IMG/VR virus record: IMGVR_UViG_2703718769_000009
Location: 1 to 4,746 of that record
From: a virus
Taxonomy: Duplodnaviria; Heunggongvirae; Uroviricota; Caudoviricetes
Reading direction: 5' to 3' (one strand)
DNA: 4,746 nucleotides
Shown here: positions 1 through 4,746 of the stretch, piece by piece
How the letters are laid out: each line of letters starts with the position of its first letter
How positions within the stretch are numbered: position 1 is the stretch's first letter
The notes under the pieces: generated by a model
Told to the model about the DNA's origin: nothing
Databases searched by the model: none
The model's input: only the letters and a program-made list of their open reading frames with translations
Translations under genes and position numbers: made by a program

Positions 1-261
1 AATGAGAAATACACGCGCTGGGTAAAGACACAGCCGTGTGCGTGTTGTGGTAAGCCTGCTGACGATCCGCATCACCTGATTGGTCATGGTCAGGGGGGAA
101 TGGGGACAAAGGCCCACGATATTTTCACGCTACCGTTGTGCCGGGAGCACCACAACGAACTTCATGCAGACCCGCTGGAGTTTGAGAAAAAGTACGGCTC
201 TCAGATTGAGTTAATTTTTCGTTTTCTTGATCACGCCTTTGCGACTGGCGTGCTCGGGTAA
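1..261 (+). CDS. 3' fragment of a phage nin-region protein with Cys/His-rich HNH-like zinc motif (DUF968/YdfU- or NinG-like); 5' end lies outside the window
   Basis: Frame 1 is open from position 1 to TAA at 259-261. Translation ...QPCACCGKPADDPHHLIGHGQGGMGTKAHDIFTLPLCREHHNELH... shows a CxxC...HH...C..HH pattern typical of HNH/zinc-ribbon phage proteins. It sits immediately upstream of rusA, as in lambdoid nin regions. Family name is from recollection, not a search. Confidence 0.6.
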   Translation, partial: NEKYTRWVKTQPCACCGKPADDPHHLIGHGQGGMGTKAHDIFTLPLCREHHNELHADPLEFEKKYGSQIELIFRFLDHAFATGVLG

Positions 262-273
262 AAGAGGTGACTG

Positions 274-633
274 ATGCTCATAGATTTGGTTTTACCTTAC
301 CCGCCGACGGTGAACACTTACTGGAGACGCCGTGGCAGCACATATTTTGTATCAAAAGCAGGGGAGCGTTATCGCCGGGCAGTGGCGCTTATTGTTCGCC
401 AGCAGCGACTGAAATTAAGCCTGTCCGGACGGCTGGCAATAAAAATTATTGCAGAGCCACCGGATAAGCGTCGTCGTGACCTGGACAATATTCTGAAAGC
501 ACCGCTGGATGCGCTGACGCATGCGGGAGTGCTTATTGATGACGAGCAGTTTGATGAAATCAATATTGTACGTGGTCAGCTTGTTCCTGGTGGTCGGTTG
601 GGTGTGAAGATTTACAAAATTGAGAGTGAGTGA
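274..633 (+). CDS. rusA: RusA-family Holliday junction resolvase (crossover junction endodeoxyribonuclease)
   Basis: 119 aa ORF with ATG at 274 preceded by GAGGTG (264-269). Size and sequence features (RRRDLDN, LDAL, GGRL) resemble E. coli RusA. Position between the nin-like gene and the Q-like gene matches lambdoid synteny. Confidence 0.85.
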   Translation: MLIDLVLPYPPTVNTYWRRRGSTYFVSKAGERYRRAVALIVRQQRLKLSLSGRLAIKIIAEPPDKRRRDLDNILKAPLDALTHAGVLIDDEQFDEINIVRGQLVPGGRLGVKIYKIESE

Positions 634-641
634 GCGTAAAT

Positions 642-1172
642 ATGATATATCCGGAAATGACAGGCAAAAGCGGCGAACATTTACGCCTGAACACGCTGGA
701 AGCAGTCTGGATCCAGGGGAAATTACGGATGTGGGGGCGGTGGTCGTATATCGGTGGGGGTAAATCCGGAAATATGTTTAACCGGTTACTGGTTTCGAAA
801 AAGCTGACGAAAACAGCAGTTAATGAGGTTTTACGCAGAATGAAGAAATCCGGGCTGGAAAAACCGGAACTTGAGGCATTTTTTTGGGATATGACCAGAG
901 GGAAGCAGAAGAGCTGGTTGTCACATTGTACAGACGCAGAAGCGTTGATTATTGATCGCGTTATCAGTGAGGTGCTTGGGGAATATCCCGGGCTAATCAA
1001 TGTTCTTCGGCAAAGGTACGAAGGCCGGGGAATGAGTAAGAGAAAAATGGCAGAATGTTTAAATCGTACTCACCCGGAATGGTGTTTCAGCACATGTGAG
1101 AAACGTATTGCAGGTTGGTTAGCCGTGGCTGAACACATGCTTTATGTACCTATGCACGATTCATTTCGATAA
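642..1172 (+). CDS. putative late-gene antiterminator (Q-like), assigned by synteny
   Basis: ORF directly after rusA and directly before a promoter-like site plus strong intrinsic terminator. Contains a Cys cluster (C-x8-C-x3-C with a nearby His) that could bind zinc. Start is uncertain: GTG 630 overlaps the rusA stop (GTGA), ATG 642 and ATG 657 are alternatives. I cannot align it to lambda Q or 933W Q from memory. Confidence 0.55.
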   Translation: MIYPEMTGKSGEHLRLNTLEAVWIQGKLRMWGRWSYIGGGKSGNMFNRLLVSKKLTKTAVNEVLRRMKKSGLEKPELEAFFWDMTRGKQKSWLSHCTDAEALIIDRVISEVLGEYPGLINVLRQRYEGRGMSKRKMAECLNRTHPEWCFSTCEKRIAGWLAVAEHMLYVPMHDSFR

Positions 1173-1178
1173 AAAAGC

Positions 1179-1207
1179 TTGCTTTTTTACGCAGAAACAG
1201 CTTTAAT
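1179..1207 (+). promoter_or_regulatory. candidate sigma70 late promoter (pR'-like): -35 TTGCTT, 17 bp spacer, -10 TTTAAT
   Basis: TTGCTT at 1179-1184 and TTTAAT at 1202-1207, located 7 bp after the Q-like stop and about 60-80 nt upstream of a strong terminator, as for pR'/tR' in lambdoid phages. Confidence 0.35.
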
Positions 1208-1265
1208 TCCTGTAAGCTTGGCAAAGCTGTATCGCGAGGCGAAACGCAAGTTTTTTTTCGCACAA

Positions 1266-1291
1266 GGAAGCCACCTGAAGGTGGTTTTTTT
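1266..1291 (+). terminator. intrinsic terminator, tR'-like
   Basis: Stem GCCACC (1270-1275), loop TGAA, stem GGTGG (1280-1284), followed by T7 (1285-1291). A T8 tract at 1251-1258 sits just upstream. Confidence 0.7.
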
Positions 1292-1414
1292 GTGTCTGCA
1301 ATATACAGCAGCGCCATAAATTCGCTGGTGGTTATTAATACAGTTCTTTCAGCTTGCTGGCTTTTTCGACAAGAGTTATTGGTGTGTCACGTTAACCGGA
1401 AAAGGGAAAAAGGC

Positions 1415-1612
1415 ATGCTAAAACAGCAGGATATGACAGAAACCGCCAGAGTGGTGTTTGATGAATTAAGCGTCACCGAACCGGCGACAGTCGGGGAGAT
1501 TGCGCAGAATACTTACCTTTCACGCGAACGTTGCCAGTTAATACTGACTCAGCTTGTTATGGCGGGTCTGGCAGACTATCAGTTCGGTTGTTACAGACGC
1601 CTTCAGTCCTGA
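1415..1612 (+). CDS. small hypothetical protein (65 aa), possible helix-turn-helix regulator
   Basis: ATG at 1415 preceded by the purine-rich AAAGGGAAAAAGG. Translation MLKQQDMTETARVVFDELSVTEPATVGEIAQNTYLSRERCQLILTQLVMAGLADYQFGCYRRLQS has an HTH-like segment (TVGEIAQNTYLSRERCQLIL). The longer 106 aa version in the ORF track starts at GTG 1292 inside the terminator T-run and has a junk-like N-terminus. Confidence 0.5.
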   Translation: MLKQQDMTETARVVFDELSVTEPATVGEIAQNTYLSRERCQLILTQLVMAGLADYQFGCYRRLQS

Positions 1613-1622
1613 AGGCTTTTTT
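1599..1622 (+). terminator. intrinsic terminator overlapping the stop codon of the small ORF
   Basis: Stem GCCTTCA (1599-1605), loop GTCC, stem TGAAGGC (1610-1616), followed by TTTTTT (1617-1622). The TGA stop (1610-1612) lies inside the 3' arm. Confidence 0.6.
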
Positions 1623-1761
1623 ATTTGTGGTAAATGGGCGGCTGGTGGTGTTAGGGGCACTCACCAGCCATCTGCTCATGCTTCAGGATCACAAGCAAAC
1701 CTCAGGCCCACTGCTTTGCGCAAAAGCAGAATGAGCCTATCAGAGACAGGCTTAATGATCC

Positions 1762-2838
1762 ATGCTTAATACTGTAAAAATACCCAGTTGTGAGTTAATC
1801 AACGCTGACTGCCTGGAATTTATCCAGACCTTACCTGAAAACTCTGTCGATCTGATAGTCACAGACCCGCCATACTTTAAAGTAAAACCCAATGGCTGGG
1901 ATAACCAGTGGAAGGGCGATGAAGATTACCTGAAGTGGCTGGACCTGTGTCTGGCGCAGTTCTGGCGGGTATTAAAGCCCGCGGGAAGCATTTACCTGTT
2001 CTGTGGGCATCGCCTGGCATCGGATATCGAAATCATGATGCGTGAGCGCTTCAGTGTGCTGAACCACATTATCTGGGCGAAGCCGTCCGGACGATGGAAC
2101 GGGTGCAATAAAGAAAGCCTGCGGGCGTATTTCCCGGCCACAGAGCGTATTCTGTTCGCGGAACATTATCAGGGGCCGTACCGCCCGAAAGATGATGGCT
2201 ATGAGGCGAAGGGCAGGGCACTGAAACAGCATGTGATAGCCCCGCTGATTTCTTACTTTCGTGATGCGCGTGCAGCCCTGGGGATAACGGCAAAACAGAT
2301 AGTGGATGCCACGGGCAAGAAAAATATGGCGTCGCACTGGTTTAGTGCCAGTCAGTGGCAGTTACCGAACGAAAGCGATTATCTGAAATTGCAGGCGCTG
2401 TTTGCCAGGGTGGCAGAAGAGAAGCATCAGCGCGGAGAACTGGACAAGCCCCATCACCAACTGGTCAGCACATACAGTGAACTGAACCAGCAGTATACGG
2501 AACTGCAGAGTGAATATAAGCATCTGCGGCGGTATTTCGGTGTGACGGTGCAGGTGCCGTACACCGATGTGTGGACTCATAAACCGGTGCAGTACTATCC
2601 AGGGAAACATCCGTGCGAAAAACCGGCAGAAATGCTGCGGCAGATAATCTGCGCGAGCAGTCGTCCGGGTGACCTGGTGGCGGATTTTTTCATGGGTTCT
2701 GGCTCAACCATAAAAGCAGCTATGGCGCTCGGGCGTCGTGCAACTGGTGTTGAACTGGAGGCAGAACGTTTTGCGCAGACCGTTAAGGAGATTAGTCACA
2801 TCCTTACATGCTCAATTGATGACGGGAAGGATGGATAA
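1762..2838 (+). CDS. beta-class DNA methyltransferase (N6_N4_Mtase type, probably N6-adenine); no adjacent restriction endonuclease, so apparently an orphan
   Basis: 358 aa ORF. Motif IV TDPPY at aa 34-38 (nt 1861-1875) near the N-terminus. Near the C-terminus, HPCEKP followed by DLVADFFMGSGST (AdoMet-binding motif I). Motif IV before motif I indicates beta class; DPPY rather than SPPY favours N6-adenine. A ~260 aa region between the motifs would be the target-recognition domain. Confidence 0.9.
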   Translation: MLNTVKIPSCELINADCLEFIQTLPENSVDLIVTDPPYFKVKPNGWDNQWKGDEDYLKWLDLCLAQFWRVLKPAGSIYLFCGHRLASDIEIMMRERFSVLNHIIWAKPSGRWNGCNKESLRAYFPATERILFAEHYQGPYRPKDDGYEAKGRALKQHVIAPLISYFRDARAALGITAKQIVDATGKKNMASHWFSASQWQLPNESDYLKLQALFARVAEEKHQRGELDKPHHQLVSTYSELNQQYTELQSEYKHLRRYFGVTVQVPYTDVWTHKPVQYYPGKHPCEKPAEMLRQIICASSRPGDLVADFFMGSGSTIKAAMALGRRATGVELEAERFAQTVKEISHILTCSIDDGKDG

Positions 2839-2949
2839 AGATATGGTCAGTTCAGGCTGTGAAGCAAGTAGACAGATAAGGCTACAATAAAAACTGACAA
2901 TAGTAAAATAGCTTTTTCCCAGGTAGTCATGAATACGATCTCTTAAAGC

Positions 2950-2969
2950 GCCCGCTGATACCAGCGGGC
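2950..2969. other. perfect 8 bp GC-rich stem-loop (GCCCGCTG-ATAC-CAGCGGGC) about 110 nt downstream of the methyltransferase stop
   Basis: Exact inverted repeat read from the sequence. No U-tract follows on the + strand; only a short TTT on the - strand. Confidence 0.5.
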
Positions 2970-3231
2970 AATACATACTGGCATTAATGTTAAGTTCAGG
3001 GATAATTCATCGTATTTTGTGGTACGACGCTATCAATGTTAATAAACAGTATTTTTCATGTAAAATTTCTGTTTTTTTGATCTGATTCTCGTTTCCTGGG
3101 TTATGATGTTGTTGTGAACCATGCTGTTGAATGATAATGTTCGGGTATAAAATTGTTGCTGATATGTAGCGCAGTGAGCAGGTGGTATTTCTGTTGCTGA
3201 GTGTACGGATACAGTGCTTCCCTCCCTCAGC

Positions 3232-3240
3232 GGGGGGGGG
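3232..3240. repeat. G9 homopolymer tract, preceded by a complementary C/T-rich run (3217-3227)
   Basis: ggggggggg at 3232-3240. The upstream CTTCCCTCCCT can pair with it in + strand RNA through C-G and U-G pairs. Confidence 0.6.
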
Positions 3241-3610
3241 AAGGTGTGCTGTGGTTTTAGAAACACCGGAAACGAGAATGATGCGGGTTTGCTGGTGCCG
3301 GGATAGAGTCGCCGGAGGTCATGACATAGAGCAAAAAAGGAATGTGCATGCAAATACACACCTCTTCGGAGAGCTCTTCTTTATATGGATGAGCCTCAAG
3401 GTCAATAGTTCATCTGTTATGTATTCATATGTTGTTACTTATATAATCCATACGGGCATATCATCAGTACACACATACTATTATGGCATTTTATTTTTGT
3501 TTTAACTGAATTCCCGGGGCACTCTTTTTGATTTCTGATAAGGAACCAGAATTTTCTGTTAAATGGTGTCACGTTGTAAATGGTTAATGGAAGCAGCTTA
3601 TTATCCATAA

Positions 3611-3634
3611 TCACACCTGAGTTAACAGGTGTGA
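3611..3634. repeat. perfect 9 bp inverted repeat TCACACCTG-AGTTAA-CAGGTGTGA; candidate operator or RNA hairpin
   Basis: Arms 3611-3619 and 3626-3634 are exact reverse complements with a 6 nt spacer. No U-tract on either side. Confidence 0.55.
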
Positions 3635-3967
3635 GAATACTTCCGGGTGGCAGGAACACATCTGACTGATACCAGATTATCAACTTTATTTTACACCATA
3701 CAGTTGAAAACGTTATTCCGCTTGATGGGCATATCACTGTGTCAATAACTATCCATTCCATCTTTTAACCTTCTCGGTACACATTGCTTTCGATTGTTTT
3801 GCTAAAAATCATAGTCAATAAATCAGTGTAACTCATTGAAAAAGATCGTTTTCTTTGTCTTCCTGGGGTTTTCTTTTCTATTTTGTATCACTTTGGTTCA
3901 AGTTGTTTCATTTTTTTGTAATACAAATTAGCAGGATGAGCGGGAATATAAAAAAAATCGGATGTTT

Positions 3968-3995
3968 TTGTAACGGATATTATTTTTTGTAAAAT
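3968..3995 (+). promoter_or_regulatory. candidate sigma70 promoter for the downstream esterase gene: -35 TTGTAA, 16 bp spacer, -10 TAAAAT
   Basis: TTGTAA at 3968-3973 and TAAAAT at 3990-3995, about 65 nt upstream of ATG 4062. Embedded in three direct copies of TTTTTGTAA (3913-3921, 3965-3973, 3984-3992). Confidence 0.3.
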
Positions 3996-4061
3996 AATGT
4001 ATTTTTATTTAAATCTCTCTCAGAAAAGAATTTATTGTTCCTTTATATGGTGGAAAAGGTC

Positions 4062-4746
4062 ATGGTATTTAAACACTACGATGTGGTCAGGGCGGCGTCG
4101 CCGTCAGACCTTGCTGAACGACTGACACAAAAACTGAAGGAGGGGTGGCAGCCATTTGGCAGTCCGGTGGCCATCACGCCTTATACACTGATGCAGGCCA
4201 TTGCCGCAGAGGGTGATGTGACCACGCCTGTGGTTGTGCCCGACACAGGGGCTGGTGGCTCTCCGGGAGTGGCTACCACTGAACCGGAGTATTACTACGT
4301 TATTCCCCTGGCCGGGCAGTCGAACGGTATGTCCTATGGTGAGGGGCTTCCTCTGCCGGAGACCTATGATCGCCCTGACTCCCGTATTAAGCAGCTGGCG
4401 CGTCGCAGCACTGTGACGCCGGGTGGTGATACCTGTGCATACAATGACGTTATTCAGGCAGACCACTGTCTGCATGACGTCATTGATATGAGTGGATTCA
4501 ACCACCCACGGGCCGACCTGACAAAGGGGCAGTATGGTTGTGTGGGGCAGGGGCTGCATATTGCCAAAAAGCTTCTGCCGTTCATTCCGGTAAATGCAGG
4601 TATTCTCCTGGTTCCGTGCTGTCGTGGTGGCTCAGCATTCACCTCCGGAGATGATGGCGCATTTACTGAGTCTACCGGTGCTTCCGCCAGCTCAGCCCGA
4701 TGGGGAGTGGGTAAACCGTTGTATCAGGATTTTCTCTTCCGTACAA
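4062..4746 (+). CDS. nanS-p: 5' part of a prophage 9-O-acetyl-sialate esterase-like protein (NanS-p-like; DUF1737-type N-terminus plus SGNH/SASA esterase domain); 3' end lies outside the window
   Basis: ATG 4062 with GGTGG 8 nt upstream; frame open to the window end (228+ codons). Translation MVFKHYDVVRAASPSDLAERLTQKLKEGWQPFGSPVAITPYTLMQ... then YYYVIPLAGQSNGMSYG with the GQSN catalytic-serine block (nt 4314-4325). GC-rich with E. coli-like codon usage. Not in the ORF track because it has no stop in the window. In Stx phages this gene family lies directly downstream of stxB. Confidence 0.75.
   Translation, partial: MVFKHYDVVRAASPSDLAERLTQKLKEGWQPFGSPVAITPYTLMQAIAAEGDVTTPVVVPDTGAGGSPGVATTEPEYYYVIPLAGQSNGMSYGEGLPLPETYDRPDSRIKQLARRSTVTPGGDTCAYNDVIQADHCLHDVIDMSGFNHPRADLTKGQYGCVGQGLHIAKKLLPFIPVNAGILLVPCCRGGSAFTSGDDGAFTESTGASASSARWGVGKPLYQDFLFRT

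Follow-up and report, generated by a model that had tools for sequence, protein, structure and literature searches.

Truly non-specific adenine methylation was first characterised in M.EcoGII (Murray et al. 2018, PMC5778455), which, like its near-twin M.EcoGI, is encoded by a prophage of E. coli O104:H4 (PMC5778455). Both enzymes are unexpressed in normal growth and in the lysogen and are deleterious if constitutively expressed; the authors suggested that they are switched on upon prophage excision, and named phage 1720a-02 as carrier of a very similar enzyme (PMC5778455). In vitro, RNA and DNA:RNA hybrids are also methylated by M.EcoGII (PMC5778455, PMC7544214). Mu-like prophages also encode non-specific adenine methyltransferases, which shielded DNA from 30 endonucleases sensitive to N6-methyladenine (m6A) (Drozdz et al. 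2012, PMC3299994). In this study, we analyzed a stretch of 4,746 nucleotides (hereafter the window) corresponding to positions 1 to 4,746 of the tailed-phage record IMGVR_UViG_2703718769_000009, in which a small open reading frame (ORF) of 65 amino acids (1415-1612, + strand) is followed by a methyltransferase gene of 358 amino acids (1762-2838, + strand). Both ORFs are present as claimed by an earlier reading of this DNA made from sequence alone (the sequence-only reading), whose observations were partly confirmed and whose interpretation was partly supported. The enzyme is a predicted orthologue of M.EcoGII, and we consider it likely that positions 1317-2838 form a conserved cassette, opening the late operon in lambdoid prophages, whose non-specific methyltransferase, dependent on the late antiterminator Q, protects progeny DNA from restriction.

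The 358-residue protein matches PF01555 (N6_N4_Mtase) over residues 29-340 with 146.7 bits (E=1.2e-42; cut-off 26.7), which is the family the sequence-only reading had expected. Its catalytic motif VTDPPY (residues 33-38) precedes the S-adenosylmethionine-binding motif FFMGSGST (residues 309-316), so that DPPY stands ahead of FxGxG in the beta-class order, and the presence of DPPY rather than SPPY points to N6-adenine as the target. Structures have been solved for relatives such as RsrI, CcrM and MboIIA. Over the full length of M.EcoGII, 311 of 350 residues (89%) are identical and 94% are positives; because the reference sequence was machine-read from the supplement of PMC11551740, the value of 89% is if anything an underestimate. 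Identity to more distant phage enzymes falls to 62% (Morganella phage IME1369_02), 60% (Yersinia phage P840) and 49% (Aeromonas phage phiO18P). As judged from its sequence, the protein is thus a beta-class N6-adenine methyltransferase orthologous to M.EcoGII and an orphan of a known, named kind. It shares with M.EcoGII and M.EcoGI of O104:H4 strain C227-11 the beta-class motif order and the prophage-borne and orphan state, as well as the small ORF upstream and the position 3' of Q seen in an O104:H4 genome and in phage 1720a-02. It differs in length (358 versus 349 amino acids in M.EcoGII), with a C-terminal tail nine residues longer, since recombination has joined the downstream slot to the gene within its final codons.

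The orphan status proposed by the sequence-only reading was borne out. No endonuclease gene adjoins the methyltransferase in the 11 annotated contexts that were read, where its neighbours are the small ORF on the 5' side and tRNAs, iraM, holin or nanS-p on the 3' side, and PADLOC returned MTase_II models only (PDLC03265, E=4.9e-155). The gene pair is therefore not a type II restriction-modification system. The arrangement recalls the C proteins of type II restriction-modification systems, in which a small helix-turn-helix gene also lies just upstream of the modification gene; however, the pair in the window has no endonuclease, and the fold of the small protein is modelled as a winged helix rather than an Xre-type helix-turn-helix.

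In the lysogen, the cassette lies behind the tR'-like terminators of the Q cassette and behind another hairpin plus U-run where the small gene ends, so that the methyltransferase would remain silent; this predicted silence of the window's copy follows from the terminator-like hairpins upstream of it. Upon induction, Q-modified RNA polymerase would transcribe the cassette along with the genes for lysis and morphogenesis, the enzyme would methylate adenines all over the replicating phage DNA ahead of packaging, and the progeny would be protected in the next host against many adenine-methylation-sensitive restriction systems together. Our own comparisons establish what the enzyme is and which class it belongs to, where it lies, how widespread it is, that it co-occurs with stxAB and that it lacks a partner endonuclease. 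Non-specificity, silence in lysogens and toxicity are taken from the literature on the homologue, and from both together we infer late Q-dependent expression of the window's copy and its anti-restriction benefit. Late antiterminated expression, as the sequence-only reading had it, is a reasonable expectation from the position 3' of Q and the terminator-like hairpins. Its suggestion of self-methylation against restriction agrees with the proposal made for M.EcoGII (PMC5778455) and with restriction-protection assays on analogous non-specific phage methyltransferases (PMC3299994), and late expression combined with anti-restriction is already a published hypothesis for M.EcoGII-type enzymes. An epigenetic role in the lysogen, its other suggestion, is unlikely, as M.EcoGI and M.EcoGII are reported to be silent there and harmful if constitutive.

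Among such analogous enzymes, Hia5, Hin1523 and Nme1821 are likewise phage-borne, non-specific m6A methyltransferases in a late position, with activity undetected in the laboratory, and were assayed as anti-restriction factors (PMC3299994); in contrast to the window's enzyme, they sit at the mom position of Mu-like transposable phages and not in lambdoid late operons.

Several points weigh against late protective methylation. First, 11% of residues differ from M.EcoGII, so that an altered specificity is possible on sequence alone, and both the activity and the expression of the window's copy are predicted. Second, the literature we found contains no phage-infection demonstration of anti-restriction for enzymes of the M.EcoGII family. 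Third, DNA modified by M.EcoGII is cut by m6A-dependent type IV winged-helix endonucleases (PMC11037411), and because such endonucleases target heavily methylated DNA, the net benefit of dense m6A depends on the host. Finally, late methylation by itself does not account for what the conserved small protein and the structured leader described below would do.

The sequence-only reading had placed the pair in the slot where Shiga toxin (Stx) phages carry stxAB, between Q and nanS-p. Comparison with Stx prophages does not uphold this placement. In the Stx2 prophage of strain 05-3629 (NZ_CP027373), the genes for DUF968, RusA, DUF1133 (Q), a 65-amino-acid ORF and a DNA methyltransferase come first, and are followed by tRNA-Ile, two tRNA-Arg genes, stx2A, stx2B, an iraM pseudogene and an SASA esterase gene (nanS-p). 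In a blastn alignment, positions 1-2789 of the window match this prophage at 94% identity and similarity resumes at 3546, inside iraM. The non-homologous stretch of the window (2790-3545, strand not applicable) stands opposite 2059 bp of tRNAs and stx2AB and is the positional counterpart of the tRNA-stxAB cassette. Within 2790-3545 we detected no tRNA (ARAGORN), no blastn similarity to the Stx2 prophage cassette and no toxin gene, and the window is a toxin-free, tRNA-free version of the slot. The pair does not belong to the morons that occupy the stxAB slot; its alignments instead indicate a conserved part of the backbone, which is found together with stxAB on the 5' side of the toxin slot and does not replace the toxin genes.

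A rival account in line with the sequence-only reading takes the pair itself as a moron filling the stxAB slot of a toxin-less phage, acting as an epigenetic regulator of the lysogen or as cargo equivalent to the toxin. The methyltransferase is indeed an orphan, and the pair does lie between Q and nanS-p, as stxAB does. However, Stx prophages also have both genes, 5' of their tRNAs and stx2AB, homology to the Stx2 prophage runs through the pair as far as 2789, and the homologue is reported to stay silent in lysogens and to do harm on expression, all of which makes such a role very improbable. Late protective methylation by a backbone gene is the reading we retain.

The other relatives show the same backbone with different fillings. 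The record of phage 1720a-02 has Q, a small hypothetical ORF, a DNA methyltransferase and an stx2A remnant, and most of the 363 phage records matching the window are Stx-converting phages with a 'DNA methylase' adjoining stx. In O104:H4 the slot holds tRNAs only (Q, small ORF, 349-amino-acid methyltransferase, tRNAs, nanS-p), it is empty in ST540 and phage cdtI, where a holin gene directly follows the methyltransferase, and the filling with iraM only, as in the window, recurs in strains of O121 and O39. Homology with Stx prophages breaks off at 2789-2838, where the methyltransferase gene has only its last ~16 codons left, and different slot fillings accordingly bring different C-terminal tails. 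Protein alignment shows C-terminal tails that vary between 349 and 358 amino acids in total length, because the slot junction lies inside these codons. With the annotation corrected in this way, the toxin slot begins within the last codons of the methyltransferase, and the cassette serves as a landmark for where the stx insertion site starts on its upstream side.

The segment 1400-2838 was covered to at least 80% in 2475 of 5426 complete E. coli genomes, at up to seven places per genome, and the closest nucleotide matches to the window are 92-96% identical. A late-operon position beside holin or lysin genes was found in phages cdtI, Morganella IME1369_02, Yersinia P840 and Aeromonas phiO18P. 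A scan of viral contigs gave close E. coli relatives only; a scan of species-level genomes yielded 78 usable loci, which form the basis for the synteny and leader counts given below. The gene pair is a very common and already known module of E. coli lambdoid prophages. As originally stated, the finding therefore matters little: the orthologue of the enzyme has been characterised, the pair occurs in nearly half of the complete E. coli genomes, and anti-restriction has already been proposed in print. We also noticed methyltransferase loci of enterobacterial type (65-79% identity) in records labelled Vagococcus, Chryseobacterium and Pseudomonas lundensis (L106, L107, L170), which are probably contaminated or mislabelled assemblies rather than evidence of host range.

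The 65-amino-acid protein matches phrog_331 (E=3e-37), a family with no assigned function, and has 327 homologues across Enterobacterales, including Escherichia, Shigella, Salmonella, Klebsiella, Citrobacter and Buttiauxella. The median pairwise dN/dS of 0.106 indicates purifying selection on the ORF. A homologue lies 150-350 nt upstream of the methyltransferase gene in 55 of the 78 loci, and the linked homologues in Xenorhabdus, Photorhabdus and Rosenbergiella are 38-50% identical; in 20 loci the methyltransferase occurs without a detectable small ORF. These comparisons indicate a real gene that is linked, though not obligatorily, to the methyltransferase. The conservation of the small ORF is thereby supported, and the suggestion of the sequence-only reading that it might be an unrelated moron is contradicted by the synteny and by a dN/dS of ~0.1. 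The synteny of this small gene with the methyltransferase across Enterobacterales appears undescribed. In O55:H7 strain DEC5A (L006, 3516-4563), a frameshifted small ORF and the first part of the leader are followed by a 237-amino-acid helix-turn-helix protein and a tRNA trio. Since there is no methyltransferase at that place, the small ORF can pair with another downstream gene.

The AlphaFold2 model of the small protein consists of three helices and a beta-hairpin wing (pLDDT 73). Foldseek matched it to the winged-helix domains of IclR, MarR, SelB and Zalpha at a TMq of ~0.75, with an E value of only ~0.01, which is modest because the domain is so small. In Pfam, the match to TrmB (PF01978) stays below threshold (E=0.0034, 17.6 bits versus a cut-off of 25.6), and no HTH_3 (Xre-type) match was obtained for this protein. 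The NCBI label reads 'TrmB family transcriptional regulator', and no NCBIfam model matches the protein. The model thus supports a generic winged-helix fold alone and does not place the protein in the TrmB family. It also agrees with the sequence-only description of the ORF as helix-turn-helix-like, given the sub-threshold TrmB match, the winged-helix topology and the fold matches.

Further examination of the region between the two genes revealed several conserved signals. A terminator-like hairpin with a U-run (1599-1624, + strand) overlaps the stop codon of the small ORF; it has a 7-bp stem, GCCTTCAG/CTGAAGGC, followed by TTTTTT. Almost all related loci have a comparable hairpin ahead of the leader, and a strict terminator pattern is present in 23 of 51. 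The stop codon of the small ORF stands beside or within the loop of this hairpin, and the hairpin is kept in several loci that lack the body of the ORF. This suggests that the 3' end of the small ORF belongs to the conserved unit.

At the DNA level, conservation of the 150 nt between the genes exceeds that of the proteins on either side, the Morganella phage included. A coding function for the intergenic region was considered and rejected, as indels among close relatives disrupt all frames. A structured element of ~140 nt (1625-1767, + strand; covariance-model match 127.8 bits) is probably the mRNA leader of the methyltransferase, and nhmmer located it directly 5' of the methyltransferase start in 54 of the 78 loci. 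RNAalifold combined with inspection gave four helices: the long-range P1 (UGGGC/GCCCA), the 12-bp hairpin P2, P3 with 4 bp closing a 17-nt loop, and the 5-bp hairpin P4. In a MAFFT alignment of 51 sequences, 93.4% of the leader cells are paired, and 12 pairs are changed on both sides, compared with 3.3 +/- 1.1 in shuffled alignments (0 of 500 reach this number) and 2-7 in slid controls. For example, the P3 pair at columns 54:78 is C-G in 26 sequences, U-A in 11 and A-U in eight. Window positions 1676/1699 form a covarying pair. The covariance model also found distant copies in a Yersinia phage (70 bits) and in Serratia and Chania loci. In the model-fitted alignment, which leans towards the modelled structure, 20 of 26 pairs are changed on both sides, versus 9.1 in shuffles. 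The single-sequence fold of 1625-1767 has a z score of -3.47. Rfam gave nothing at E<=1 for the whole window, and chance-level matches for 1560-1800 (best E=0.29, 16.7 bits versus a gathering score of 36). This covarying leader element appears undescribed.

The leader runs up to the AUG of the methyltransferase gene, whose start codon has no Shine-Dalgarno sequence. A GATC (Dam site) lies at -6 to -3 of this start (window 1752-1764) and is kept in 50 of the 51 aligned sequences. Mutually exclusive alternative pairings exist, GUGRA/UYNGC against P3 and GGC/GCC around P4 against P1, and it is possible to read them as what a switch would look like. A helix sequestering the start codon was tried in three forms (AUCAG/CUGAU, GGUCA/UGAUC and CAUG/YAUG) and rejected, since each has uncompensated mismatches (alignment A6) and RNAalifold on the tail predicts none. 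G-U and A-C cells in the helices number 19 versus 19, so wobble pairs do not settle which strand is transcribed. In Xenorhabdus and Photorhabdus (L142-L171, ~1400-1500), the small ORF and the methyltransferase are kept, but the leader has shrunk to a P2-like hairpin, which GGUGAAA/UUUCACC closes, and differs in its 3' half.

The literature we found does not describe how phages keep such a toxic, non-specific enzyme silent and later activate it. The small protein and the structured leader provide a concrete, testable handle on the control of M.EcoGII-type enzymes. M.EcoGII itself is an enzyme in wide and commercial use.

One tentative possibility, which would add to late protective methylation and not replace it, is a gate of the Com/mom type. 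Here the winged-helix protein would bind the leader RNA or the DNA, and binding would enable translation of, or read-through into, the gene lacking a Shine-Dalgarno sequence, so that the toxic enzyme would be made only once the small protein accumulates late. The small ORF is syntenic with the methyltransferase across genera and under purifying selection, the covarying structure occupies the space between the genes up to the start codon, and mutually exclusive helices can form in the leader. Winged-helix domains can bind RNA hairpins, and SelB-SECIS structures are among the fold matches. Phage Mu uses the small activator Com and a structured leader for the toxic late modification gene mom, and Mu-like prophages in which a non-specific methyltransferase replaces mom retain Com or possible Com sites (PMC3299994). 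In Mu, the small regulatory gene comes first, then the structured leader and then the late enzyme that modifies DNA and is toxic to the host, and the window's architecture runs parallel. However, Com is a zinc-finger translational activator and Mom an acetamido-adenine modifying enzyme, and neither is homologous to the window's proteins. The 65-amino-acid protein is not Com-homologous, as it lacks the zinc-finger cysteines (it has two cysteines) and the only Pfam match, to TrmB, is weak and below threshold. Against such a gate also stand the 20 of 78 loci that have leader and methyltransferase with no detectable small ORF, the small ORFs found without a methyltransferase, the failure to find a conserved helix over the AUG, and the equal numbers of G-U and A-C cells, by which the transcribed strand is unproven. 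The parallel with com-mom would therefore be a functional analogy and not membership, with a mechanism that is inferred only. More broadly, the undescribed layer made up of the 65-amino-acid protein, the stop-codon hairpin and the leader might represent either a Com/mom-like post-transcriptional gate, which would time or limit production of a genome-wide adenine methyltransferase, or a partnership that modulates specificity, shared by lambdoid phages across Enterobacterales; this we regard as conceivable but doubtful.

The helix P2 is conserved in both sequence and pairing from E. coli to Xenorhabdus, and its sequence conservation could also mean a protein-binding site. A conventional role for the small protein as a DNA-binding transcription factor, for example a C-protein-like controller or a late regulator, with the P2 inverted repeat as its operator, is in our view rather unlikely. 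The winged helix is of the kind used by MarR and IclR regulators, the NCBI name refers to the TrmB regulator family, and P2 is a 12-bp inverted repeat whose very sequence is conserved over this range. Nevertheless, covariation in P3 and in the long-range P1 is not explained by a palindromic operator, the TrmB match is under the Pfam threshold, P2 is unchanged in loci without the small ORF, and a search for a promoter-like site in the P2 region found none.

We also considered whether RNA, and not phage DNA, is the physiological substrate, with the small protein as a targeting subunit. M.EcoGII acts on RNA and DNA:RNA hybrids in vitro (PMC5778455, PMC7544214), and the analogy is with a two-subunit methyltransferase of Stx phages, a different one, that gains a preference for 16S rRNA from a small co-expressed partner (PMC10810198; bioRxiv 10.1101/2023.09.20.558713). 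The latter, M.EcoPA8orf6770P-PNB-2 (Gong et al. 2023, PMC10810198), resembles the window's enzyme in being a methyltransferase of an Stx-type prophage, non-specific alone, to which a small partner is said to give specificity. It differs in locus and family, carries DPPW and lies at the left (integrase) end. Identity of the window's pair with this enzyme was ruled out by the DPPW motif and by its location, since it is the fifth gene when counted from the integrase end and lies near position 2456 of the phage; as a different gene, it proves nothing for the window's pair. In addition, an interaction between the window's two proteins is unsupported, and the methyltransferase often occurs without the small ORF. 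An RNA substrate is accordingly improbable, and methylation of replicating phage DNA remains the favoured role.

Besides the cassette, the window contains several further genes, and the gene order described by the sequence-only reading (Q-like gene, tandem hairpins with U-runs, small ORF, methyltransferase, AT-rich stretch, NanS-p-type gene) is correct. The window starts in the 3' end of a DUF968 gene (+ strand), followed by rusA (274-633, + strand) and the Q-like late antiterminator gene (630-1172, + strand). The product of the latter matches PF06576 (DUF1133) with E=2.7e-109, PF06530 (Phage_antitermQ) weakly with E=1.3e-07 and phrog_753 ('anti-termination protein Q-like') with E=2.6e-73. Right after its stop codon begin tandem hairpins, each followed by a U-run and tR'-like (1172-1295, + strand; fold -49.8 kcal/mol, z=-5.24, with none of 200 shuffles as stable). 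By comparison with other phages, these hairpins are part of the DUF1133-type Q cassette and outside the methyltransferase module, since phages with a different Q type share homology with the window only from ~1317 onwards. The small RNA StxS, which goes with the short 144-amino-acid Q type (PMC7547250), was considered for the pR'-tR' region. No StxS-like RNA was detected near 1172-1295, the window's Q is of the DUF1133 type, and the window has no Rfam match.

No tRNA was found by ARAGORN in the whole window. The stretch 3' of the methyltransferase is AT-rich (GC 0.28-0.38), as the sequence-only reading had noted in describing an AT-rich island; beyond that description, an iraM homologue lies intact on its minus strand (3435-3761; NF007393, E=1.6e-42, 144.2 bits versus a cut-off of 121). 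IraM is an anti-adapter that stabilises RpoS. The gene is annotated as iraM in relatives, and in an Stx2 prophage it is a pseudogene just 3' of stx2B (L002, 6742-7065). Between the methyltransferase and iraM, a short GC-rich patch (3180-3360, GC ~0.5, with a G8 run after CCCTCCCTCAGC) interrupts the AT-rich stretch; it has no notable ORF, no RNA family match and no similarity to the Stx2 cassette. The window ends within the 5' part of a NanS-p-type esterase gene (4062-4746, + strand; PF08410 DUF1737, E=2.9e-16), which continues beyond the window and whose counterpart in relatives is annotated as an SASA family carbohydrate esterase or DUF6645 protein.

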